From assembly GCA_965215125.1 (NCBI GenBank), contig OZ244052.1:1-64000 (forward strand): DNA of 64,000 nucleotides. Direction: 5' to 3'. The stretch's first letter is position 1. The number at the start of each line of letters is the position of its first letter. Shown here piece after piece: positions 51,849 through 64,000 of this stretch. The position numbers and the translations under genes are program-made. Under the pieces are notes generated by a model, which saw only the letters and a list, made by a program, of their open reading frames with translations, did no database searches and was not told the origin of the DNA. This DNA is from an uncultured candidatus Porisulfidus sp. Lineage in GTDB: Bacteria > Pseudomonadota > Gammaproteobacteria > Poriferisulfidales > Oxydemutatoraceae.

Positions 51849-52766
51849 TTACAAATGCCGGATGATTATTTTGTGTTTGTCGGCTATTGCCTCTGCCATA
51901 TGATGGCGGTGACAGCATGTGTGATCTTGCTCAAAGCAAGTGATGGCTACTCTTCGGTGCTGCCGAATGATTTTCACTACATCCTGCAATGCTTGCTTTT
52001 TATCGGTTTGGCTTAAGGTTTTTCGGTATTGATCGAACAGTTGATTATACTCAATGCGAGATTTAATATTCTTTCGCAGATCTCCCTTAATGCCTAATTC
52101 CGGGATATGGATATAAGCTATTCCGAACCTGCCGGTTATATCTTGTAGTTGTTTTTTAGAAAAGCCTTTTTTAATGCTAAAAGGATTATACCTAACATCT
52201 ATCAGTGCAGAGATGCCGTTATCGATTAAGCCTCTCAGATATTGTTCTATACTTTTTCCTTCGTAGCCTATGGTGTAAAGCGTTAAATACTTGTTCTTTA
52301 TCTGTGGTTTTTCTTTAGATATATAACGGCGCAACGGTTTAAATTTCGGTTTGTCCAGAAGCTCGCTATTGATTGCGTAGTACGGATACTTTTTATATAC
52401 CTCGTAGATAAGGGCATCATTGGAAAGTTTTCCATACTCATCAAAGATAGTGTCTAGATACTCTTCATCCTCCGGTTTCAAGTTGATCACCCCTTTAATT
52501 TTCTTATTATTTACAATGTATGCTTTGTCGTTTTTCGTTATCGTCAACAACCGATAATAATCGGCGAGTATCCGAGCATCTTCGTTAGCTTGAAATGAAT
52601 AACACCCATACTTATACGGTAAGAAATGATAAATCGGCTTCTCTTGCCGTTGGGTAAATAGAAAGAGCAACTTTTGCAAGCGGATTTTCTCCGTGCAATC
52701 TTTCCCGCGAGTCAGAATTGCCAGCAACACACGCCTGCGGTAATACAAAGTCTTGGGGAAATTCAT
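51849..52766 (-). CDS. DUF488-family protein with N-terminal winged-helix/antitoxin-like domain
   Basis: C-terminal TIGYEG, DVRYNPFSIKKGFSK, PELG, CFEQDHTCCHR; N-terminal LQKLLF..FLPYKYGCYS. Confidence 0.75.
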   Translation of the reverse strand: MNFPKTLYYRRRVLLAILTRGKDCTEKIRLQKLLFLFTQRQEKPIYHFLPYKYGCYSFQANEDARILADYYRLLTITKNDKAYIVNNKKIKGVINLKPEDEEYLDTIFDEYGKLSNDALIYEVYKKYPYYAINSELLDKPKFKPLRRYISKEKPQIKNKYLTLYTIGYEGKSIEQYLRGLIDNGISALIDVRYNPFSIKKGFSKKQLQDITGRFGIAYIHIPELGIKGDLRKNIKSRIEYNQLFDQYRKTLSQTDKKQALQDVVKIIRQHRRVAITCFEQDHTCCHRHHMAEAIADKHKIIIRHL

Positions 52767-52794: not shown

Positions 52795-53358
52795 TTATGA
52801 TGCGGGAATCGGACATTTTAGAGATTTAAATGAAACCGTTCCCGGAGAGTAGACAAGTGTGAAACCTTTATTTTTATATTCATGGTACTCATACTGATGC
52901 TGATCCTTGATTGGTTTCTTATTCCTCGTTTCTGATAATCCTTTTGTAATAACTATATAATGCTCTTTAATTTCTATTTCTTCGGAAAAGTATATAGCCA
53001 CCATTGAAACCAGATATTTCCAAGCAGGGATAGTATAAAGTATCTGGTTACATGCTTTTTCAAAAGTACGGCTTTCTGCGCTACTTATAGTTTTCTTCAA
53101 TTCTATAAAATAAACATCTGTGGTACTAGTGTTGGGTACTATAATTAAATAATCGCATGACTTTGTATAATTCTTTATATTAGCTATTATCGCTGGATGA
53201 AGTTGGTTCGTTCCCGTTAGATTGATAGCAAGCCCTTCACTTGGTAGTCCTAATATATTGATTTCCATATCGTTACTTTTCTCTTCCAATTTAACACGAT
53301 TTTTAACAATCCTTTTATATCTCTCTGCTTTTAGCAGCTTTTCCATAAACTTAATCAT
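52795..53358 (-). CDS. Hypothetical protein, possible PD-(D/E)xK nuclease partner of the upstream ATPase
   Basis: SCDYLII...VYFIELKK...NQI pattern; 8-nt overlap with the ATPase gene. Confidence 0.5.
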   Translation of the reverse strand: MIKFMEKLLKAERYKRIVKNRVKLEEKSNDMEINILGLPSEGLAINLTGTNQLHPAIIANIKNYTKSCDYLIIVPNTSTTDVYFIELKKTISSAESRTFEKACNQILYTIPAWKYLVSMVAIYFSEEIEIKEHYIVITKGLSETRNKKPIKDQHQYEYHEYKNKGFTLVYSPGTVSFKSLKCPIPAS

Positions 53359-54745
53359 CTTCCAGCGTCTCTATATCTATATAGGTATTCAGTTCTCCGC
53401 ATATCAGGTTGATATTATCAATCGCATTATCAAAAACTGACATCTCTTTAATGCCTCTTTCGTCTATATTACATGGACTTAACTTCCCATCTTCACAGAT
53501 ATATGCTTTAACAGAATTAGGGTTCAAGCAATCATTCTCCGTATATTCTTTTTTATGCTTTTCAAGAAATTCTTTCTTCCCTTCAAAATTTCGATGCAAC
53601 ATAATCAAGTTATCAATTTCCTTGATTATATAATCACTGTGGGTTGTTATCAGTACCTTTATCCCATTGTTAACACAAAATGCCAAAAGCCGAGCCATTA
53701 AAACTTGATTGCTCGGGCTCAAATGGCTCTCGGGTTCATCAATAATAAGAATTTGCCCTGATATCGCAAGATGTTTTAAGTAAAAATATAAGCTCAAAAT
53801 CCCGCGAGCAGATGACGAAGCAAGATGTAAAGGTATCTCAAATCTATTTTTTCCTCTTTTATTGGAGATAAATTTAATTACATCTTTTTCTACTTTATAG
53901 TAGCCACCTATCATATTCTTTACTAAACTCACTGCATCCGTTGTCAATCCATTTTTCTGTTTTGCAACATACAATAAATCCCTAATGAAATCTACGTTGT
54001 GCTGTATAGATATCGCATAGCGTGCACTCGCTTTTTCAATAAACTCAATTGGGTCAAAATCTTCGGTATCTGATAATCTTTGTAGCTCCTGAACCAGTCT
54101 ATTTCTAGTAAAATCTAATTCTTTATAAAAAAGCGAGATGCCAAACCTTTCGGCAGGTAGAATAAATGGTTCAACACTATCCTCTCGGACCATTTTTTCA
54201 AAGAAAATATGTGGTTTTTTAAGTTGACTTGGGAATGTAGCATATTCTGGATTATCAATCTTAAATTTTAGATTTTCACTTTGAGAGAAGTATTTTATTA
54301 ATGCTTTTGCACCCTCGGTATTCCGTATTGGAATTTCTCCTTTTATTAGTTCATTTTCTTCTTCAAACCGAAAGCTAGCTTTTTCAAATTCGTTTTTCGG
54401 ACAACTAAAAACCTGATGAATAATTCTTTGTGAAAAAAGTTTGGATGCTGCCTTCATCAACCAATTACTCATATTCCGGTATTCAGCAAGAGTTATTTCT
54501 GCCGACCCTGTCGCTTCTATTTGCTGAGCAGTTTCTTTAATTTTTACAAAATATTCCTCAGGGTATTTTCCGAGCCTATAGAAAAGATTAAATCCACTAT
54601 CTTTCCAAAAATCTAAAAAGCCATAGAGTGTATAAACCAAATAGGTTTTACCGGTGTTATTTTGCCCGGCAATAATGGTTAAATCCCCCAGTTCCAATTC
54701 GGCATCTTTAATCGGACCGATATTTTGAAATCTTGCTTTAATCAT
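53351..54745 (-). CDS. ABC-type (AAA_15/AAA_21-like) ATPase
   Basis: NIGPI, GQNNTGKT, PAERFG, ASSSAR, LIIDEPESHL, TTHSDY. Confidence 0.85.
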   Translation of the reverse strand: MIKARFQNIGPIKDAELELGDLTIIAGQNNTGKTYLVYTLYGFLDFWKDSGFNLFYRLGKYPEEYFVKIKETAQQIEATGSAEITLAEYRNMSNWLMKAASKLFSQRIIHQVFSCPKNEFEKASFRFEEENELIKGEIPIRNTEGAKALIKYFSQSENLKFKIDNPEYATFPSQLKKPHIFFEKMVREDSVEPFILPAERFGISLFYKELDFTRNRLVQELQRLSDTEDFDPIEFIEKASARYAISIQHNVDFIRDLLYVAKQKNGLTTDAVSLVKNMIGGYYKVEKDVIKFISNKRGKNRFEIPLHLASSSARGILSLYFYLKHLAISGQILIIDEPESHLSPSNQVLMARLLAFCVNNGIKVLITTHSDYIIKEIDNLIMLHRNFEGKKEFLEKHKKEYTENDCLNPNSVKAYICEDGKLSPCNIDERGIKEMSVFDNAIDNINLICGELNTYIDIETLEDD

Positions 54746-54792: not shown

Positions 54793-57603
54793 TCAACCGG
54801 TGATTTGCTCTTGGTTCTGTTGATTATTAGCATATTCTGCTAGAACATCTATTATCTCGGCAGGCTCTTTTGCGATCTCAAAAGCCCACACCCCGTATTT
54901 GCCATCTTCGTTGACCGCTTGAACCCACTCCTTCATATATCTATGCTTTTCGTCGTTCCTAGCTATGTCCGGTTGCCATCCCTTTACTTCAAGTACGAGA
55001 TGCTGTCCGGATTTCAACCGAATGATAAAGTCGGGATAATATCTTCTAAGCACACCATTGTGAACATAAAGTACACTGAAACCAATGTGGTCGTTTTTGA
55101 CCCATGCGTCTATCATTGCATCTCTATCTAATTGGAATGTACTAAAGCCTTCCCACCTACTATCAAAAACGCACCGATTGATATGGCTTTTTTTGGTTAT
55201 CTTGGTCGGCTTCCCGGTGCGCCACGGACGCATATCCCCGGTTGAGCAGATAGGATGGTTGCTATCAAGCACCAACGATGTTTTTTCGGTGTTGTCCTGC
55301 TTGATTGCATCCCCAAAATGGCGTATGACCGATGTCATCTTAAGTGCTATCACAAGTTTTCTTCTTAATTCATTGTTATTATAGGATTTAGGCTTCACTT
55401 CGATAAGATCCGAGTTGATAAATTGTTCGGCTAGCCGCACGAGCTCGGCTATCAGTATCGGTTCGGGGATTTTCCAGTCGAGTTTGATTTCTTCGTACAC
55501 CGACTGGGCTGCCTTGAAAATCAATGTCTGCTTTCTATTTGTTCGCATAAACTCTTCAAGATCTATATCTCGTATTCTAGAAATATCGGGTTTACCGCCT
55601 ACAGTCTCAGCCATCTCTACTATTTCTATAATTTCGGTTGCATCGATCGGCAGTGGATCAACTTTTTCCCAATCTACCGAAAGCCTATGCTTATAAGCTC
55701 TATCTATTCTGATAACATTCGGCCATTGAATAGCAAATTTTTGCTTTGAATCTAGCGGTTGAACGGTAATTTTATTACCCTTACCCCCACCTCCGCCATC
55801 ATTTGTTCTTTCGTGTGGTAAAAAAGTAAACGGCACACCGAATACTTCAACATATTCCGGCTCGAACAAACCGGTGTCTTCGTTAACATCGTAACATGAA
55901 CGACGCAACCCTCTGCCTACAACCTGCTCGCATAATAACTGGCTGGTAAATGCCCGCAATCCCATGATATGTGTGACCGTATGCGCATCCCACCCTTCGG
56001 ATAGCATATCTACCGAGATAACATTTTGTATCTTTTCTCCCGGCTTACCCTCTTGTCCGACAGTATTTACTTTTTCTCTGAGCGTTTCCACTTTTGCCTT
56101 TTTCGTAGCCCTCGCTTTTGGTGTTTTGTCTCCTTCGTCGGTTTCCGTAGGACTCGATTCCATCGCTTCCTCTTTTTTCAGCACCTTTGAATCTATATGC
56201 AAAATACCGTCTTGGTTACAAAACAACTCCGAATCCGTTATGTGCTTATGCCTAAACGCATGCGCAATGCGCTCCGCCGTTTCCGTTCTATTGGTAACCG
56301 TAATCATTACCGGAGGGGTTGGCGCATCAGCCCATTCTTTCTTTACTTTATCCCAATCCGCTCCGAGTAAAAAATAGGCATTCTTAATCAGTTGAGGCAA
56401 CGGTTCATGAGATCTAGCTTTACGATTTAAGTCGGCTTTAACATCGGGGTCGCTATATATATGGTAGAGCCGAGATTTGTTAGTTCCTGAATCCGATAAT
56501 GTATCATCGTCAATAGCGATGTGCGGTGTTTTAACCAAACCGGCTTCAATCGCATCGTTCAACCCGAAATCACTGACAATCCATCTAAACAAAGACTCCT
56601 CGGTTGTTCTATTGCTACCGGGTGCAAACGGTGTTGCGGAAAAATCAAAGCAAGTCAAAATACCTTGTGCTTCGTGCAGTCGGTCAAGCCCACCCACCCA
56701 GATAGTTGCCTCCTCTTCTTCATCCTTTTTGATACCTTTCATCGACGAACCTGCAGGAATACGCCATGCGTGGTGTGCTTCGTCGTTGATAACGATAATG
56801 TTTTTGGCTTTTGCCATATCACCGAGCACATCTCGAGCATAGGCATTGTCGCTTTTGACACTGCGTTTATCTACGCTCTTTTTCTTGTTAATTTTCTCTT
56901 CGCTGTCCCACTGGAGTGCGTGCCAGTTGCGTATCAATACCTTTGCCTGTGCAAGTTTCTCTCTTAAAGACACCGGCACAACATCAAATTCCTCATAATA
57001 GTTTTTAGGCTCGGAAGGCATGAGTACCGAAAGACGCTCTCTAACCGTCAAGTTCGGGGCAACAACGAAGATATTCTTAGAGAAGCGACCGTCATTGGGA
57101 TAAGTTGCCTTGTTGATTACTTGCCAAGCAATCAACATTGCCATCACGACCGTCTTGCCGGTGCCGGTAGCGAGTTTGGAACACAAACGGCGAAACGATC
57201 CACCGTCACCCTCAACATCAATACCGGTTTTTTCCGAATCGGGTGTTTCAATCAGCCATATTAAGGTTTCAATCGCCTCAATCTGACAAAAGAAAAACCG
57301 ACGCTCTCGTCGCTCTTCGTCTTGCCAATGCTCAAGTAGTGCTTTGGTGACACCGGTAATGCCCGGGCGACCGGCATCACGCCATTTATCTACACGCTGC
57401 CGAATCTTATTAACTAAAGGCAACTCTATGAATACCCCCATATCTTGATAAGGTTTCGTTGCCCTAGGGTCGGAGACTAAATAGCCCGCCGAGCGACGCT
57501 TGTCTACGAGTTCGGGAGGAGAATCGCTATCGGAAAATTTCCAGTGTTTTGACGGGTATTTATACGGTGAATTGATGATAAGACTAGATTTCATACTTTG
57601 CAT
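54793..57603 (-). CDS. res: Type III restriction endonuclease Res subunit (SF2 helicase + PD-(D/E)xK)
   Basis: FFCQIEA, LATGTGKT, NDEAHH, DFSATP, MLSEGWD, EQVVGRGLRR, YYPDFI..LEVKG. Confidence 0.9.
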   Translation of the reverse strand: MQSMKSSLIINSPYKYPSKHWKFSDSDSPPELVDKRRSAGYLVSDPRATKPYQDMGVFIELPLVNKIRQRVDKWRDAGRPGITGVTKALLEHWQDEERRERRFFFCQIEAIETLIWLIETPDSEKTGIDVEGDGGSFRRLCSKLATGTGKTVVMAMLIAWQVINKATYPNDGRFSKNIFVVAPNLTVRERLSVLMPSEPKNYYEEFDVVPVSLREKLAQAKVLIRNWHALQWDSEEKINKKKSVDKRSVKSDNAYARDVLGDMAKAKNIIVINDEAHHAWRIPAGSSMKGIKKDEEEEATIWVGGLDRLHEAQGILTCFDFSATPFAPGSNRTTEESLFRWIVSDFGLNDAIEAGLVKTPHIAIDDDTLSDSGTNKSRLYHIYSDPDVKADLNRKARSHEPLPQLIKNAYFLLGADWDKVKKEWADAPTPPVMITVTNRTETAERIAHAFRHKHITDSELFCNQDGILHIDSKVLKKEEAMESSPTETDEGDKTPKARATKKAKVETLREKVNTVGQEGKPGEKIQNVISVDMLSEGWDAHTVTHIMGLRAFTSQLLCEQVVGRGLRRSCYDVNEDTGLFEPEYVEVFGVPFTFLPHERTNDGGGGGKGNKITVQPLDSKQKFAIQWPNVIRIDRAYKHRLSVDWEKVDPLPIDATEIIEIVEMAETVGGKPDISRIRDIDLEEFMRTNRKQTLIFKAAQSVYEEIKLDWKIPEPILIAELVRLAEQFINSDLIEVKPKSYNNNELRRKLVIALKMTSVIRHFGDAIKQDNTEKTSLVLDSNHPICSTGDMRPWRTGKPTKITKKSHINRCVFDSRWEGFSTFQLDRDAMIDAWVKNDHIGFSVLYVHNGVLRRYYPDFIIRLKSGQHLVLEVKGWQPDIARNDEKHRYMKEWVQAVNEDGKYGVWAFEIAKEPAEIIDVLAEYANNQQNQEQITG

Positions 57604-57609
57604 TATAGG

Positions 57610-57981
57610 TTAAGGGATTAAATTTTCCTTCGGTACGAAAAAAGGCGGCATCTCACACCATACAACATGTCCCTTTCTAATCCAATAATGACATCTACAC
57701 GAATGTCTGGTAACAAATATGGAAGGATTGAGAGTCAATGTGCCGTTTTTATGTTCCTGAACCTTCCATCTCCTAACAGAGTCCGCAGAGACTTCCAAGT
57801 GAATGATTTTCTTGCATTTTTTCTTAGGACAGGTAATCGCAGCATAAAAAGGATATTTCCGCCCCCCTATGATATAGATTGTATTTTTCTCTATATTGTC
57901 GGGTAGATCCTCAACCCATTTTGTCCTATATCGCTTTTTGAGCCTTTGAGTGTAGTTGAATATCTTAAGTAAGTATCTTAT
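57610..57981 (-). CDS. DUF6527-like protein, 123 aa from a non-canonical ATA start
   Basis: Frame is open from ATA at 57981: VEDLPD..IYIIGG..ITCPKKKCKKIIHL..W..TLNPSI..CRCHYWIRKGHVVWC. SD AAGGAGG lies upstream. The ORF track caught only the last 62 aa. Confidence 0.7.
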   Translation of the reverse strand: MRYLLKIFNYTQRLKKRYRTKWVEDLPDNIEKNTIYIIGGRKYPFYAAITCPKKKCKKIIHLEVSADSVRRWKVQEHKNGTLTLNPSIFVTRHSCRCHYWIRKGHVVWCEMPPFFVPKENLIP

Positions 57982-59378
57982 GATTTTTTCCTCCTTTTTA
58001 AGTTTTGAATTAGCATACTCCCTTCTCCCGTACCTAGATATTTCTTAAAGACAGAACCGTCGTCGCTTTCATTCTCTTGATTCAAATAACACCCTTGAAC
58101 CAACTGGAATGTTTGAGTGCCAAATTTTGAATTATCGTCTAATCTAAAATTATGGAGCCGCGCCAAAAAATCGTTAAATGCCAAACAAGCCGCCTGCATA
58201 TTAACGGACATTACGGCAGGTTGATCTTCCACAACACCTTTCAAGTACCCTTCTTGTATCCGTTTTTTGTAATGTTTCACATCATCACGCTTTAACCTCT
58301 CTGCCGTAACCTGCTCGCTCGTATAAACCCCTCTATCTAATAAGCTACAACTATCGGGATGTATATATCGGGAAACGGCATTCGCCTGAGAAATACCACC
58401 TTTGCCATCGGACTCTAAATAAACACCGACATCAAAATAAGGAATCAAATATGCCTTAGAGATACACTCCAGATGATAGCGCCCTGCTGCAGAATCCACA
58501 CAACCAAAAACAATATCGCAATCAACCAAAGACTCTATGGAGCCTTTATCGTAAGTATCCAATTTATGTATTTCCACATTTACATTCATATCCATTTTTT
58601 CAATCGCTCGCCGCAAAACTTCAACTTTGAATACACCTTTTTTTGCATCGCTTTTTTGGGAGTTCATAATGCGGTTAAGGTTTTTTTCTTCTACGACATC
58701 CGGGTCTATCAATACTAAACTGCCTATACAGTTACGCGCTAAAAGTTCAACTATGATGCTGCCGGTTCCCGAACACCCCACCACACCGACTTTCAATAAG
58801 CGAAGTAAATCAAAAGTTCCTTTACCGAAAGTCTGCGATATTCTGGTTGCATAACCGGGAATTTTACTTTTTGATTTGGTCTGCTTCCATATCTTAATAT
58901 TTTCACCGACAACCGATACACTTTCTACAAGAGTAAACTCTCCGTGCTCATTGTATGTTCTAGCTTTGATGCTACCGTCCGGAAGCATAATCGCCGAACC
59001 GTTGAGTCGATTATCGTCAAACCACGCGGATATTGAATGAAACAAAGCTCTATCATTTTCATCGTCGGTTATCGAGAAATCATTGCAACCCTTCGGATGA
59101 CTATGGATAGTAAATACCGAGAGTTTCTTTTTATCTATTTGATCTATCTTTTGAGGTGGCATATATTGGGAAAACGGCCAAGATACATAAATCGGAGTTT
59201 GTTTCTCGTATTCGGACGGTGGAATTAGTATCGCCTCTCCGACTATCAGTCTAGTGCTTTGCAATCCTATCCCCGATGCGCAAAGCATAACTGCAGCGGC
59301 TTCCAACTTATCCCCCGAATGTAGATGATCTTTTAAGGTTTTATGGGTAGCTTCGCCGAGTACTAGAGATGTATACAT
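57978..59378 (-). CDS. JAB/MPN peptidase-ThiF/E1 fusion (BubCD-like)
   Basis: JAB E..HSHP..FSITDD; E1 VVGCSGTGS, DPDVVEEKNLNR, GCVDS..R, FDVGV, EGYL..PAV. Confidence 0.88.
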   Translation of the reverse strand: MYTSLVLGEATHKTLKDHLHSGDKLEAAAVMLCASGIGLQSTRLIVGEAILIPPSEYEKQTPIYVSWPFSQYMPPQKIDQIDKKKLSVFTIHSHPKGCNDFSITDDENDRALFHSISAWFDDNRLNGSAIMLPDGSIKARTYNEHGEFTLVESVSVVGENIKIWKQTKSKSKIPGYATRISQTFGKGTFDLLRLLKVGVVGCSGTGSIIVELLARNCIGSLVLIDPDVVEEKNLNRIMNSQKSDAKKGVFKVEVLRRAIEKMDMNVNVEIHKLDTYDKGSIESLVDCDIVFGCVDSAAGRYHLECISKAYLIPYFDVGVYLESDGKGGISQANAVSRYIHPDSCSLLDRGVYTSEQVTAERLKRDDVKHYKKRIQEGYLKGVVEDQPAVMSVNMQAACLAFNDFLARLHNFRLDDNSKFGTQTFQLVQGCYLNQENESDDGSVFKKYLGTGEGSMLIQNLKRRKKS

Positions 59379-59390
59379 TTATAAACCCTA

Positions 59391-59783
59391 TTAAGCCTCA
59401 TTTTTTAATGTGTCCTCTACCCAAGACAAATGATATACAACATTATGGTGGTTAGGATTCCATTCATAGTGCCTAGACCATCTCTGCCAATTTTTATTAA
59501 AATGATTTTCATCGGCAAGACAAGCGATTGCTTCCCCGTCCGTGCGAACTATAGCGGGAGAAAAATAAAACATATCTATTTCAACGACCGGGTAGTCAGT
59601 TGGAATGATTATCATCAGGTCGGATTTTTCAGGCGTGTATTTTGAAGAGGGTAATGGATAATCGCAAATAATTATGCCATACTCGCCGCCTTCGGAGACC
59701 GGTTTCCAACAACTAAAATTTGCATTTAGATATTCTATGTCTTCTTCAGACAACCTCTCTTTAAGTAAATCATGTTCTGCCAC
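59391..59783 (-). CDS. Prokaryotic E2-like (E2/UBC fold) protein, BubB-like
   Basis: DYPLP..Y, IPTDYP..IDMFYFSP, WQRWSRH..W; lies between the Ubl and E1 genes. Confidence 0.82.
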   Translation of the reverse strand: MAEHDLLKERLSEEDIEYLNANFSCWKPVSEGGEYGIIICDYPLPSSKYTPEKSDLMIIIPTDYPVVEIDMFYFSPAIVRTDGEAIACLADENHFNKNWQRWSRHYEWNPNHHNVVYHLSWVEDTLKNEA

Positions 59784-59785
59784 CT

Positions 59786-60523
59786 CTAACCTTGTTGTGC
59801 TTGTTTCATAACCGTCTCAAAACGTTCAACTCCTTCCTCAGCAAAATCCACAATCTCTTCCGGTTCTATAGATTTTCTAAGTCCGCCACTAAATTTTCGA
59901 TTAAGCGACCATTCGCTATAATTTTTTCCTGCTAGGCTTAAAATTTCACGACCTTCCCTCTCTCGCTTATCCACTATGTACTTTTTTTTATCAATCTTGA
60001 TTTCATATTTGTCAAATTTCGGAGGTATGCGTCCCTTTTTTGCACACTCTTCCAAATCAACTGAATCATCGTCGCCGGAAGGCACCGTAAAATACACATC
60101 GGTCTCTTGAACAACGAGAGTCATATCATCTTGTATCAAATCGTCGGTTTTGCCTGCTACATCTGCAAACAGTTTAGGTGATTCCAATTCCTCGTCTCTG
60201 CACGAAATATCATTGCCGATTAACTTTACTTTCTCTAATCCTTGTTCAATCTTCTTGCCGTTGAACTCAAAACGTACAGGGTTTCGGACCGAAGGGTTAT
60301 CTCCTATATCCTCGTTAATGTTATCAACAAATATATCCTCGCCACCGTGAATAATGATGTAGTCATCGGGTAATAACGGAATATCTATATCTCCGGATTT
60401 ATTGAGATAAAGACATTTCTCATCGGACTTGATGCCCGAATTTTCGTATAATTTACCTACTTGTGTAAGCCCTTTTTCTCTTTCTGTTTGCTCACCGGCT
60501 AACATTATTGTAACTTTGCTCAT
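59786..60523 (-). CDS. Multi-ubiquitin-domain protein (about three Ubl domains, C-terminal Gly)
   Basis: Three beta-grasp-like repeats; last unit YEIKIDKKKY..GREILSLAGK..GVERFET ends QAQQG. Confidence 0.82.
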   Translation of the reverse strand: MSKVTIMLAGEQTEREKGLTQVGKLYENSGIKSDEKCLYLNKSGDIDIPLLPDDYIIIHGGEDIFVDNINEDIGDNPSVRNPVRFEFNGKKIEQGLEKVKLIGNDISCRDEELESPKLFADVAGKTDDLIQDDMTLVVQETDVYFTVPSGDDDSVDLEECAKKGRIPPKFDKYEIKIDKKKYIVDKREREGREILSLAGKNYSEWSLNRKFSGGLRKSIEPEEIVDFAEEGVERFETVMKQAQQG

Positions 60524-60524
60524 C

Positions 60525-61100
60525 TTAATTTCTCCGACTATGATTAGCTTGTGATTTTATCATATCCCCTCGGAGCCTGTTATATGCTTGTTGAGAAGTT
60601 AGAATATCCGCACCTTTCCTGCGTCCACTGCTCGTAGGAATTCTCAGCAGCTTTTGGCGACGCACTCCTATTTGGGTTCCTTCGTCAATCATGTCCCTTC
60701 GGTCATTCGTAATCAAAATACGACCTTGCTTGAACGCTACATAAACAAAAAATTTATCGGTTCCCGGTTTGCCTTGAGGTTCGGAAATGATTCCTTTAAT
60801 ACCCACCATCAATTTATCATTAAGATAAACTGTTATACATTTATGGTTTTCAGGTTTCACCCAATAACGGAGCAAGCGTCTCTTTTTAGAGTCATCATTA
60901 ATCTGCTGAATCCTTTTGGTTAAGCGCTTATGATATTCATCGGTGATTCTTCTTTTATCATCTACCAACAGCTTTATTTTGTCATTACATAGCTGCTTTA
61001 ATAATTGGTCAATATGCCTGTTTGTATTTTCCCGAGGGTTTAATAAATGCTCAAAAATATTGGTATCTATTGCAATAGAATCCTTTGTTAGGTTATCCAT
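60525..61100 (-). CDS. PIN-like domain protein
   Basis: IAIDTNIF, EY, DKFFVYVA, ILITNDRRD acidic PIN pattern. Confidence 0.65.
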   Translation of the reverse strand: MDNLTKDSIAIDTNIFEHLLNPRENTNRHIDQLLKQLCNDKIKLLVDDKRRITDEYHKRLTKRIQQINDDSKKRRLLRYWVKPENHKCITVYLNDKLMVGIKGIISEPQGKPGTDKFFVYVAFKQGRILITNDRRDMIDEGTQIGVRRQKLLRIPTSSGRRKGADILTSQQAYNRLRGDMIKSQANHSRRN

Positions 61101-62370
61101 CTCGATCGTCGGACGCCCCCATATTTAGCTCCTCTATCAAATCGGCACCGAAAAACTCCATAGGTAATCCCTTTTGCATAGTTCCATCATCTTTGATAGT
61201 AAGATTGGTGACCGTAGGTATTTTTTCGTCATAATTAAAATAAGCGATTGAAACATCCTTGGGCGATATATGTCCTTTGACAACATGGTTACGAATTCTC
61301 AACAGAATATTCTCGCTATGGGTCTCAATAATTGACCCGACCTTGCGTTCTTTCCATAAATCAACAAAGAAACTTCCCATTTCAATTTGGGCGGTCGGAT
61401 GAATTTGTGCTTCGGGTTGTTCAACGATCAACTGCGAATAAGAGTTCATCAAAAGCCCTTGAACAAATACCGGCATACATTGGCTAACACCGAAACCAAA
61501 ACAAGATAGATTAACTTTGGCTTTGCCCATTTCGTGTATTGCTGAACATGCGGCGAATTGATTTTCCAGCTCCTTTATAGTGATGTAATCTATGTTTAAT
61601 ACCTTTTTAGCATGCTTAATTAAAAGCTCTCTCTTCTTTTTATTCTCGAGAATTTTCTCTCTCCATAATTGAAAAACCGTATCCTCTCCCATTTTTCCTA
61701 CATATCTATTAGGATGTGGATGGTATATCGGAGCAAATCCTTCCAGCTCTTCTCTAGCAGCTGCTAAATGTTCTAAAGATTGAATATCTCCTGTAAGTTT
61801 TTCTACACATCTTCTCATAACAGAGTCTAATACCAATTCATCTATCGGTTCATTTTTAGAAATTGACTCATTTATTTCTATTGGTTCGTCTGTGGAATAA
61901 AGAAATGTAGAATTTGATGAAATATCCGATGACCCTTCTAAAAAGCGTTTACCTTTCCCTAATAAATTTATTTTTTGCTTACCCGAAAATATACCATTTT
62001 TGTTATATGGGGTTATTACCTTAACCTCGTATTCTCTTATTATGTCGCTTATCTTATGTTCTTTGAGAAAGTTAAAAAAATAGCCGCTAGGGCTATCATA
62101 TTCATCATCAACCTTCAAAGAAAAAGTAAGATTAGGTAATCTTCTATTTTTGTTTTTTAGTTCATAAAATACGCCGAGATCAGTTTCTTCACCACTGGTA
62201 GTCAAGAAACTTCTAGTGTTTGTGGTTGATTGCTTAAGCATCATCAAAAACTTAATAATAGAGGATTTTCCCGAATTGTTTTTCCCTATCAGAATAGTAA
62301 TAGGACGAAATCTCACGGTGACTTTATCTCCGAATAAACGAAAATTAGACAATTTAAGCTCTTTGATCAT
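61093..62370 (-). CDS. ABC-type ATPase with DUF3696-like C-terminus
   Basis: LSNFRLF, GKNNSGKSS, GFGVSQ, VEQPEAQIHP, ETHSE, IKDDG..PMEFF. Confidence 0.85.
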   Translation of the reverse strand: MIKELKLSNFRLFGDKVTVRFRPITILIGKNNSGKSSIIKFLMMLKQSTTNTRSFLTTSGEETDLGVFYELKNKNRRLPNLTFSLKVDDEYDSPSGYFFNFLKEHKISDIIREYEVKVITPYNKNGIFSGKQKINLLGKGKRFLEGSSDISSNSTFLYSTDEPIEINESISKNEPIDELVLDSVMRRCVEKLTGDIQSLEHLAAAREELEGFAPIYHPHPNRYVGKMGEDTVFQLWREKILENKKKRELLIKHAKKVLNIDYITIKELENQFAACSAIHEMGKAKVNLSCFGFGVSQCMPVFVQGLLMNSYSQLIVEQPEAQIHPTAQIEMGSFFVDLWKERKVGSIIETHSENILLRIRNHVVKGHISPKDVSIAYFNYDEKIPTVTNLTIKDDGTMQKGLPMEFFGADLIEELNMGASDDRDG

Positions 62371-64000
62371 TTCCTTTTCTCCGGTATCACATCGATGACT
62401 TTTAGGCTTTCAATGCCGCGATCGTCTACGACTTTGACGGCAATGCGGCTATGTTCGCCGAGTTCAAACGGTAAAGATAGCGTGCCTTTATATGATTCTA
62501 TCAAACCCTCGTCTATTTCGGCTCTCAGGTTTTTTGCGAGCTTTGTCCATCCGTCTTTGTCCGCTGCCATCGGGAAAAATACTTGTTTGGGGTATAGGCT
62601 TCTGCCGTCATAGTCGGTATCCAGCATCCAAACGGCTATTCTTCCCTCGTCGCCGGATTCTATCTCGCCGGTTTTCGTGTTGAAATAATCAAAACCTTTG
62701 AGCTTTACTTGCCACTGCCCTATCAGATCGCCTTTGCGTATCGGCTCTATAACAACTTCGGGTTGCCCTATCAACCAGAAGCAATCGCTGGTGCGGTCAC
62801 CTCTCTTTAAGTCTTCGGTTTGTAAATCGGCATTCATTTGAACTTTCAAAATTGAAACATTAGGCCAATTGAACTTGTCTATGTCTTTGGCGGCCTCGGG
62901 GTCAAACTGAAAAGCGACAAAAATAACCATCTGTGGCGTAGGTCTGATTTTATCGGCTTCTTGTAATGCCGCTTCTACTTGGCGAGATTCCAATAATCCG
63001 TGTTCGGGACCGAAGGATAAGACCGCTCGTACGGGTGTATACGCCGGTGCCGGTTCGCTCACGCCCGTACCGGAGTCATCGGGTCTAGTTTCGGCATCGG
63101 CATGAATCCAGCGACCCGGCCACGACTCAATACGAGAGAATGAAATGCGTTGTCCGCCTTTGCCTCTGATACTGGTCTTCAATAGTTCGTTACACCATTC
63201 GCTGTGGCGCAAGGTTGCGCCGCTGCGGGCAACCGTCTCATCCACCGGCGCAGGCTCGGACGCTATGACATCGTCAATCGGCTGGACAATAAGCGACGAT
63301 ACGGCTTCAACCGTAAAAGGACCGGTTACACGCGCTTTTTTGCTATCTTTAGCCGGTTGGTCGTAAAGATAAATTTCTTGAGCCGGCATTGTGCCTGCCA
63401 AAATACCTGCAGATACTTTTTTCAAGGAAGGATAATCAAATCCGCCGCCGATACCTTCGCTGGGATAGGCAAGTTGGTAATAGTCAAAAATAGCAGTCAT
63501 CAATCGCTGCTTGGCAAGCGTGGTTGCTATACGCGAAGTATCGCAAGTAATCCATCGTCTGCCCCATTGCTCGGCAACATAAGCGGTCGCACCCGAACCG
63601 CAAGTTGGATCGAGCACTAAATCACCCGGATCGGTAGTCATTAAAATACAACGCGCAATCACCTTGACCGAAGTTTCAACTACATAGTGTTTATCAGAAG
63701 GATACATTTGTACTGGCCAAAGATTGCTGATTTTTTTACCCGGTACTTCATCCTCATATCTTTTCCATCTCAGTGAATTTTGTCCCTCTAATGCTTCCAG
63801 CCGCCCCAACTCATTTAACTTATCTATACCCTTTTTAGAGATTCTCCACTGTTGATTGGAGGTACAGCGAAAAATTCTACCATTCCAGTGATACGGTTTG
63901 GAGCGTTCAGTATTGGATGTGCCTTGTGATGCAAGGCTAGATCGCTGGTAGATTCGAGCATCTTTGGGTAAAAATTTATCGGGATCAAAGCGTTCTTCGT
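62367..64000 (-). CDS. mod: Type III restriction-modification DNA methyltransferase Mod (5' part outside the window)
   Basis: VIARCILMTTDPGDLVLDPTCGSGAT..AEQWGRRWITCD, IAVKVVDDRGIES. Manual translation shows the frame stays open from 63809 to the window edge. Confidence 0.9.
   Translation of the reverse strand, partial: EERFDPDKFLPKDARIYQRSSLASQGTSNTERSKPYHWNGRIFRCTSNQQWRISKKGIDKLNELGRLEALEGQNSLRWKRYEDEVPGKKISNLWPVQMYPSDKHYVVETSVKVIARCILMTTDPGDLVLDPTCGSGATAYVAEQWGRRWITCDTSRIATTLAKQRLMTAIFDYYQLAYPSEGIGGGFDYPSLKKVSAGILAGTMPAQEIYLYDQPAKDSKKARVTGPFTVEAVSSLIVQPIDDVIASEPAPVDETVARSGATLRHSEWCNELLKTSIRGKGGQRISFSRIESWPGRWIHADAETRPDDSGTGVSEPAPAYTPVRAVLSFGPEHGLLESRQVEAALQEADKIRPTPQMVIFVAFQFDPEAAKDIDKFNWPNVSILKVQMNADLQTEDLKRGDRTSDCFWLIGQPEVVIEPIRKGDLIGQWQVKLKGFDYFNTKTGEIESGDEGRIAVWMLDTDYDGRSLYPKQVFFPMAADKDGWTKLAKNLRAEIDEGLIESYKGTLSLPFELGEHSRIAVKVVDDRGIESLKVIDVIPEKRK

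Follow-up and report, generated by a model that had tools for sequence, protein, structure and literature searches.

A probable nested defence operon: a six-gene Bub/ATPase-nuclease cassette inside a type III-like restriction-modification carrier

In an uncultured candidatus Porisulfidus sp., the methyltransferase gene (mod) and the restriction gene (res) of a type III-like restriction-modification (R-M) system enclose an ABC-type ATPase gene, a gene for a small PIN-fold nuclease, and four genes of a bacterial ubiquitin-like conjugation system of the Bub type. The locus raises the question of whether the six enclosed genes are wired to restriction, constitute a system of their own carried by the R-M pair, or share the site as unrelated tenants. 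The window, i.e., the whole stretch of DNA analysed (64,000 nucleotides, nt), comprises positions 1–64,000 of contig OZ244052.1, and the locus occupies the minus strand of 54793–64000. The reading we consider probable is that of a nested defence operon, with a six-gene Bub/ATPase-nuclease cassette housed inside a type III-like R-M carrier; this reading does not require direct coupling to restriction.

The coordinates of the open reading frames (ORFs) give the minus-strand order mod > ABC ATPase > PIN > BubA > BubB > BubCD > BubE > res, with successive junctions, from mod to res, of -4, -8, +1, +2, +12, -4 and +6 nt. The order and all seven junction sizes given in the initial annotation of this DNA were matched to the nucleotide, and its gene names were borne out by searches of Pfam, PADLOC and NCBIfam or, in the case of PIN, by the predicted fold. 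Since the eight-gene arrangement recurs at 11 other loci (see below), it is far beyond chance.

The first gene of the carrier, mod (62367..>64000), codes for a type III-like beta-class N6-methyladenine (m6A) DNA methyltransferase; the full protein comprises 868 amino acids (aa), its gene running to 64973 beyond the window, and the C-terminal 543 aa are encoded within the window. It is matched by the PADLOC model MTase_III (PDLC03632, 7e-76) and by N6_N4_Mtase of Pfam (1.5e-14) and, as expected of a type III Mod, displays the beta-class combination of DPPY (residue 160 of the full protein) and an S-adenosylmethionine (SAM)-binding motif, PTCGSGAT in the translation, and is located upstream of res. 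The last gene, res (54793..57603, 936 aa), encodes an ATPase of the superfamily 2 (SF2) helicase type whose C-terminal part is a PD-(D/E)xK endonuclease; it is recognized by ResIII (1.7e-10) and by NCBIfam NF046055, the BPTD_3080 restriction endonuclease, with 1047.8 bits at a cut-off of 800; PADLOC REase_III models match it weakly (3.3e-12 over 44 residues). Its motifs GTGKT at 147, DEAH at 274 and PD...EVK at 857–872 supply both the helicase-like ATPase and the nuclease of a type III Res. Judging by these motifs, Mod and Res are an intact type III-like R-M pair, in which Res is a BPTD_3080 family member. Elsewhere in the same genome (G000:C1:561451-563958), an 897-aa frame displays 32–40% identity to this Res over three segments and represents a second, more distant gene of the Res kind.

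Type I Bub operons comprise BubA(B), BubCD and BubE, and conjugation in the Citrobacter system proceeds via the E1 tyrosine Y370 and the E2 serine S333 with H335 and D299; BubE, a protease of the Ser-His type, has a C4 zinc site, as stated in the accessible part of the report on that operon (PMC11601596). In the window, BubA (59786..60523) is a multi-domain ubiquitin-like protein, matched by Multi_ubiq (8.4e-10, residues 173–237) and ending exactly in ...KQAQQG; the QQG motif is kept in 15 orthologues, where 0–7 residues trail it. BubB (59391..59783, GTG start) is a cysteine-independent E2 matched by Prok-E2_E (9e-30) and by Citrobacter BubB (9eae_C, 7.7e-17) with “wsrh” and “dmfy” aligned; residues D70, S103 and H105 are invariant in 15/15 sequences and a catalytic Cys is absent, as expected of this E2 type. 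BubCD (57978..59378), a fusion of a JAB/JAMM peptidase with an E1 adenylation domain, is matched by ThiF (9.3e-24) and Prok-JAB (2.4e-5) and aligns with Citrobacter BubCD (9ea4, 7.6e-67) such that the Tyr of its “khy” falls on the “eey” Tyr; E26, H92, H94, S102, D105, R236 and Y370 are invariant in 5/5 sequences, and residues 347–377 contain no Cys. BubE (57610..57984), a DUF6527 serine protease (1.3e-14) with a non-canonical start, exhibits both the C4 zinc site and the Ser-His dyad (C52, C57, C96, S88 and H99 invariant, C98 in more than 90% of 16 sequences). Neither PADLOC nor NCBIfam has a match for BubA, BubB or BubE. Overall, the gene order Ubl (ubiquitin-like protein)/E2/JAB-E1/DUF6527, the Citrobacter matches and the conserved catalytic residues uphold the Bub-type operon proposed at the outset, and the genes are predicted to be a true Type I Bub operon in which none of the catalytic residues known from the literature is missing.

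The ATPase placed ahead of it (61093..62370, 425 aa) is matched in Pfam by AAA_15 (1.4e-20) and AAA_21 (3.3e-9); DUF3696, which had been suggested as a check, is absent from the Pfam matches of the window proteins at E <= 0.01. Its PADLOC matches are NsnB (1e-49), PDC-M55A (2e-38) and HEC-03B (PDLC04148, 5.9e-33); the first two score better than the HEC-03 model, which covers only residues 244–413. The Walker A motif is GKNNSGKS, and the Walker B motif, LIVEQPE (window 61420–61440, residues ~314–320), is unusual: the form hhhEQPE is found in 14/16 orthologues and EEPE in 2/16, whereas DEPE or DEPD occurs in PD-T4-4 A and in the OLD-like ATPase described below. An EQPE/EEPE Walker B motif suggests ATP binding with slow or no hydrolysis.

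The PIN protein (60525..61100, 191 aa) is a predicted VapC-like nuclease whose Pfam match, PIN_12 (E 0.007), is below the cut-off. An AlphaFold model obtained from 15 orthologues (predicted local distance difference test score, pLDDT, 87.7) retrieved VapC/PIN entries as the top Foldseek rows at E 3e-3 and weaker, with no match at E <= 0.001; in VIA-align the list is headed by PIN/VapC/HARP rows (Z 9.3, root-mean-square deviation 3.8 Å, 136 residues). Residues D12, T13, N14, D47, D115, N132 and D133 are invariant in 15/15 sequences. The protein is assigned to the PIN fold on the strength of consistent VapC/PIN rows in Foldseek, the Z scores from VIA-align and the conservation of acidic residues; the earlier PIN call is thereby backed by fold and not by Pfam.

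Recurrence of the arrangement was followed from both of its ends. The search with Res covered 40 relatives and the window's own genome and gave matches in 14/41 genomes, among them full-length homologues of 51–65% identity at seven places in six genomes; 20 kb around each Res place were compared by tblastn with 11 proteins of the window. The complete eight-gene order was found in five of the eight Res-selected loci, window included, with cargo identities of 35–59%, and different genes are present in the other three. A scan with the BubCD alignment, one genome per species, yielded 74 loci, of which 11 possess the full order (four of them already in the Res-selected set), four are cut by contig ends in a manner consistent with the package (L021, L071, L090, L092), two hold ATPase-PIN-Bub without mod and res between flanks resembling housekeeping genes (L022, L084), one is rearranged (L037), and 56 carry Bub without ATPase-PIN or BPTD_3080 R-M. 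The 12 full packages are the window, L025–L035 and L080; the other 11 display 35–70% protein identity and span several gammaproteobacterial lineages. Pairwise identities across the 12 packages are correlated (mod-BubCD 0.86, res-BubCD 0.71, mod-res 0.69). The prospect raised beforehand, that these genes might never recur with this R-M family, did not materialize.

The GC (guanine plus cytosine) content of the window drops from ~0.49 to 0.33–0.42 at ~51.6 kb, and the low-GC block spans 51.6–62.4 kb at 0.33–0.40, compared with 0.45–0.46 in mod and res. This could be read as a recent insertion of the cargo. Such a reading was rejected, since ATPase and PIN have the lowest GC in 12/12 packages (3–18 points under mod), cargo GC overall follows host GC, and the cargo proteins have diverged as much as Mod and Res.

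Tight packing (overlaps of 4–8 nt or gaps of 1–12 nt) and the persistence of the package down to 35–70% protein identity, together with the mod-BubCD correlation and the congruent eight-locus clade described below, speak for a rival explanation in which the cassette is wired to the R-M pair. According to it, ATPase-PIN and/or Bub would sense the inhibition or failure of Mod/Res, e.g., by phage anti-restriction proteins, and respond with nuclease-mediated abortive infection or with tagging of Res, Mod or the inhibitor. Precedents are on record: the available text of PMC12707154 names PARIS, and PrrC within a type Ic R-M, as restriction guardians, and of 443 Bub or CBASS operons regulated by CapK/CapS, 88 directly follow an R-M system, as given in the accessible part of PMC13373217. 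A further point in its favor is that ATPase-PIN-Bub is the commonest cargo (5/12 Res-selected loci). We regard this explanation as unlikely in view of what else the mod-res interval contains.

In a class-level sample, an NF046055 Res above cut-off was detected in 27/401 genomes, a count that includes three genomes flagged as unpublished and left out afterwards. Twenty of these Res places were split by tblastn into subfamily A, ~31% identical to the window Res (14 loci), and subfamily B, 45–64% identical (six loci). Among the Res-selected subfamily-B loci with mod and res visible, 11/12 carry cargo, which is unrelated to ATPase-PIN-Bub in 6/12, and in one (L135) mod and res are adjacent without cargo. 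According to Pfam and PADLOC scans, the cargo comprises HEC-01 A and B in L012 (2e-153, 6e-56); a Ppl-like ATPase, a Schlafen/AlbA_2 protein, a PDC-S37/Hhe-like helicase-nuclease and PD-T4-4 in L013; a CAP12/Pycsar-type TIR protein in L014 (4e-37); IetA/IetS (1e-133, 1e-253) plus a Bub cassette in L016 and L018; a pair of 331 and 850 aa, IetA/IetS-like by eye, in L136; a PD-T4-4-like pair in L137; and PD-T4-4, a res fragment and two further ORFs in L138. L139 holds ATPase-PIN-Bub-res at a contig end, and in L140 the upstream sequence is too short to judge. Hence, the subfamily-B mod-res interval is an exchangeable slot for different defence systems, and the picture conforms to embedded cargo as described by Payne et al., with cargo of differing families in 11 of the 12 loci.

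Traces of the exchange are visible at the cargo boundaries. Duplicated res 5' stubs accompany IetAS or PD-T4-4 (L016:9780-10157, L018:11078-11332, L138:4058-4333), and a mod stub precedes PD-T4-4 in L026:2028-2201; these are likely the scars of cargo exchange by recombination in conserved flanks. In the Res tree (25 rows, rooted on subfamily A), Bub loci are interspersed with loci bearing other cargo, and the starred branches force at least five changes of Bub-cargo state. The Res of L021 (Bub) is sister to that of L138 (PD-T4-4; value 97, starred), and the window Res is nearest to that of L012 (HEC-01). The BubCD tree (64 rows; 11 of the 74 loci were omitted for partial or interrupted BubCD matches) has two sides, each at 99, starred: the 22-row side contains all R-M-embedded cassettes together with L022 and seven Bub-only loci, and the 42-row side contains none that is embedded in R-M. 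L029 is placed with the window/L012 set by Res but with L025, L027 and L031 by BubCD. A clade of eight Bub-carrying Res (100, starred) and the BubCD tree have three sister pairs in common (L033+L080, L028+L030, L027+L031). Taken with the identity correlations, the trees imply that the package has been inherited together over long periods and also that its entire cargo is replaced now and then.

These observations bear directly on coupling to restriction. The same R-M backbones hold HEC-01, IetAS, PD-T4-4, TIR or nothing, close Res relatives such as L021 and L138 differ in their cargo, the cassette exists without mod and res in L022 and L084, and the same BubCD clade includes the seven Bub-only loci. 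The initial annotation had envisaged a layered system in which the cargo backs up restriction, with Res or Mod as possible conjugation targets. The genes, the Type I Bub operon and its recurrence in the mod-res interval stand; the backing-up of restriction and the conjugation of Res or Mod are not supported as stated, and a specific coupling to restriction is not required, given unrelated cargo in 6/12 loci of the same R-M and none in 1/12. The five or more changes of state in the Res tree and the two cassettes living without an R-M pair speak against it as well.

If the R-M pair is a carrier, the cargo itself may be one system or several. That ATPase-PIN, being HEC-03-like, and Bub share the slot while functioning separately, both from one another and from the R-M pair, would agree with several observations: the slots accommodate several unrelated systems side by side (IetAS with Bub in L016/L018, four systems in L013), a HEC-03 ATPase plus PIN alone suffices for defence (bioRxiv 10.1101/2024.01.29.577857, as far as the available text goes), and the Citrobacter Bub proteins conjugate in vitro and in Escherichia coli without an ATPase (PMC11601596, accessible part). 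Such independence seems improbable to us, since within the BubCD-selected loci all 16 ATPase-PIN pairs of this family immediately precede bubA, except in the rearranged L037, where pair and Bub genes share one locus. A search independent of Bub gave the same result: of the 400 genomes in the class sample, four contain a match to the PIN profile, in each case beside Bub. A shallow metagenome scan with the PIN alignment, made with one peptide pattern, returned seven loci with nothing contradictory; three of them represent a single sequence, and the scan adds little.

The other side of the BubCD tree provides a second line of evidence against independence. In this 42-row clade, BubAB is fused, and CapH/CapP-like regulators (HTH_3 plus Peptidase_M78) are located upstream in the scanned examples; bubE is followed, often with an overlap, by a ~545-aa ABC ATPase belonging to another family (e.g., L040:11725-13362). 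Its ORF starts 200–800 nt past the end of the BubCD match in 36/42 loci; in the other six it is nearer (L046, L055, L057), farther (L070) or absent (L036), and the contig is short in L059, so an ABC ATPase-nuclease follows bubE in 36–39 of the 42 loci. This ORF is absent from the 21 other loci of the 22-row clade. The model of the ~545-aa protein (pLDDT 90.0) has the Thermus OLD nuclease 6p74 as its best match (6.9e-15), followed by PtuA and GajA. Its C-terminal 245 aa have no Pfam match, and the TOPRIM assignment is made because the fold matches and the motifs EG..D and DxD are conserved. With a PIN pair in one lineage and an OLD-like ATPase in the other, both Bub lineages travel with an ABC ATPase and a nuclease. 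For independent tenants speaks that a homologue of the ~545-aa type is found alone, without Bub, as cargo of a subfamily-A R-M (L141:3127-4779). In three Bdellovibrionales loci (L020:6459-8653, L023:6470-8666, L024:976-3157), a conserved pair of ~400 and ~335 aa, with no Pfam or PADLOC match, precedes the Bub operon; its members are perhaps regulators.

These associations permit a joint reading, which we put forward as tentative and rather doubtful as a whole: Bub would be the regulatory arm of an ABC-ATPase/nuclease abortive-infection effector, represented by ATPase plus PIN upstream or, in the sister lineage, by an OLD-type ATPase-TOPRIM protein after bubE; phage tests of Bub would have failed since this partner was omitted; and type III-like R-M operons would be vehicles that move the cassettes from genome to genome and express them behind mod. 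The main texts of the two Bub preprints make no mention of an ATPase, nuclease or effector, and their supplementary tables may list such neighbours.

For the nested operon preferred here, the following course of events can be proposed. Recombination within the flanks, conserved at the mod 3' and res 5' ends, would exchange the cargo. The whole unit would be transcribed from the mod promoter, with cargo and res expressed after mod; since mod and res abut in the empty L135, res presumably relies on read-through from mod, which crosses any cargo. A site of the form TAGAAA-17-TATAAT lies directly 5' of the mod start, a kind of site that is no commoner in the locus than in shuffled sequence. The six cargo genes would form one system, where BubA is adenylated by BubCD, passed via Tyr370 to Ser103 of BubB and put on a target protein, from which BubE removes it, and where the ATPase-PIN pair may be the sensor/nuclease arm. 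The R-M pair would be the first layer and the vehicle, so cassette and R-M would operate in parallel and not as obligate partners.

Several points weigh against this reading. A scan of the locus gave 48 promoter-like sites versus 48.5 in shuffles and 20 terminator-like sites versus 16.8; as such sites are no commoner than in shuffles, internal promoters are possible, and the co-transcription from mod through the Ubl genes to res envisaged in the initial annotation is plausible from the junctions but gains nothing from the site scan. The loci compared are related and come mostly from similar metagenome-assembled genomes, so their counts represent non-independent events. ATPase-PIN could be a separate system, as HEC-03 works alone and Bub conjugates in vitro without an ATPase. 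The likeness of the ATPase to HEC-03 is limited to its C-terminal part, and PIN matches zero PADLOC families at E <= 0.01 (NCBIfam has no match for it either). Finally, we infer a defensive role of Bub from its context, and phage protection has so far been demonstrated for none of the Bub operons, as far as the available texts of two reports go (PMC11601596; PMC13373217, 2026 EMBO J).

The start of bubE belongs to the same list. No ATG, GTG or TTG precedes 57798 in this gene, and the -4 junction requires a start at ATA (57981) or ATC (57984). The bubCD/bubE junction (window 57976–57995) reads AGGAGG-AAAAAA-TCATAAGA, and bubE orthologues have ATG where the window has ATC/ATA, right after AGGAGG and a run of six A; L071 (88% DNA identity) has the same junction as the window. 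Expression of bubE would need initiation at ATC/ATA or a -1 slip on the A run, the latter resulting in a BubCD-BubE fusion. Compared with L071, the ratio of non-synonymous to synonymous substitution rates (dN/dS) is 0.116 for BubE (27 synonymous, 16 non-synonymous changes), 0.147 for BubCD and 0.108 for res; thus purifying selection still acts on bubE, and its translation must proceed in an unusual way. Together with the EQPE Walker B motif, the bubE start implies that both products may work atypically.

The proposed operon continues beyond res. An ABC ATPase of the PD-T4-4 A type (53351..54745, minus strand; PADLOC PD-T4-4_A 3.2e-106) begins 47 nt downstream of res and is followed by a 187-aa PD-T4-4 B-like/PDC-M47B-like partner (52795..53358, minus strand), matched weakly by PDC-M47B (3.5e-7) and PD-T4-4_B (9.8e-5), with no Pfam match. 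The last gene of the low-GC block encodes a 305-aa DUF488-domain protein (51849..52766, minus strand; DUF488 3.6e-26, no NCBIfam match). The putative PD-T4-4 pair and the DUF488 gene directly after res would make up a third module of the nested operon. In relatives, PD-T4-4 is encountered ahead of mod (L026) or between mod and res (L013, L138), and a DUF488 homologue (42% identity) comes directly after bubE in L051.

On the other side, 41 nt upstream of mod and co-oriented with it, a 249-aa membrane-anchored pentapeptide-repeat protein is encoded (genome 65014-65763; L019:15014-15763, minus strand; Pentapeptide 1.8e-16). It was considered as a member of the package and dropped: tblastn gave nothing in the fetched loci, and the genes upstream of mod are unrelated in the other 11 packages. 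Three loci of the same BubCD clade that hold Bub only have a membrane-anchored pentapeptide-repeat gene directly upstream of bubA (L051:7778-8905, L076:7808-8878, L079:7864-9240). Just past the island, at genome 66718-69928 (L019:16718-19928), three paralogues of 318, 262 and 307 aa have a repeated C-terminus, ...ALNMLQKG..S.ISE.TGLS..EI.QLK., and are presumably relatives of Rpn/PD-(D/E)xK transposase-like proteins.

The significance of the locus lies mainly in what it implies for Bub, which is biochemically characterized. The repeated occurrence of a Bub operon in a slot elsewhere occupied by defence systems, whether validated or candidate (IetAS, PD-T4-4, HEC-01, TIR), argues that Bub is an immune module, and the near-constant ABC ATPase plus nuclease (PIN or TOPRIM) in both sister clades is a candidate for the missing Bub partner; the interest of the locus rises if this partnership is functional. 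The embedding of defence genes is also extended here to a two-gene type III-like R-M family (BPTD_3080), whose mod-res interval could be mined for new defence genes as the Hma and type I RM intervals have been. Embedding has been published for type I RM, Hma, BREX and DISARM in the available part of the preprint of Payne et al. (bioRxiv 10.1101/2024.01.29.577857), where, supplementary items aside, the word “ubiquitin” has zero occurrences. DarTG2 between hsdS and hsdR of type I RM is a further case, and this site was called a potential recombination hotspot in the text available of PMC12255303. Supplements aside, the literature search found neither a type III-like mod-res interval as host nor Bub as embedded cargo, and a search for BPTD_3080 returned nothing; that type III mod-res intervals host accessory defence genes, presented as established in the initial annotation, is not supported as stated.

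Compared with known systems, the R-M pair resembles the classical EcoP15I-type, in which mod precedes res on one strand. In EcoP15I-type Mod, DPPY stands ahead of the SAM-binding motif (the beta-class order), and EcoP15I-type Res combines Walker A and DEAH motifs with PD-(D/E)xK at its C-terminal end; both proteins of the window are built likewise. Unlike the classical type, the window Res belongs to a separate NCBIfam family, BPTD_3080, and 4.76 kb of cargo part mod from res, an adjoining pair being found in L135 alone.

HEC-03 is a validated defence system of an ABC ATPase and a VapC-like PIN with both genes required (bioRxiv 10.1101/2024.01.29.577857, available part), and, like the pair in the window, it places a small PIN of the VapC kind after the ABC ATPase and is embedded in a methylation-based defence system. 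The window pair falls outside the HEC-03 profiles, its ATPase being matched in part and its PIN lacking a PADLOC match; unlike HEC-03, it has an EQPE Walker B motif and is joined to a Bub operon wherever the context is visible.

Embedding as described by Payne et al. and for DarTG2 is, in the parts of these sources consulted, similar to the present locus in having co-oriented genes nested in a multi-gene system and a hotspot whose cargo varies and extends to HEC-01, ABC ATPase systems of the PD-T4-4 type and a pair of ATPase plus PIN; unlike those hosts, the host here is a two-gene type III-like Mod/Res pair (BPTD_3080), and its cargo includes a Bub operon. In the PrrC/EcoprrI case, too, an R-M operon encloses a nuclease system of the ABC-ATPase type. 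PrrC is, however, a single protein whose activation by R-M inhibition was shown experimentally, according to the available text, whereas such coupling is hypothetical for the window cassette, which is also found without R-M.

The Bub genes are closest in kind to BubAB-BubCD-BubE of Citrobacter sp. RHBSTW-00271 (PMC11601596; PDB 9ea4, 9eae), with the same gene order and conserved catalytic residues. Unlike that operon, BubA and BubB are separate genes in the window and BubA ends at Gly; the locus has no CapW, CapH/CapP or CapK/CapS regulator; and its Bub genes are situated inside an R-M operon, with an ATPase-PIN pair ahead of them and a non-canonical bubE start. Overall, the locus combines two known kinds of system, embedded defence cargo and Type I Bub.

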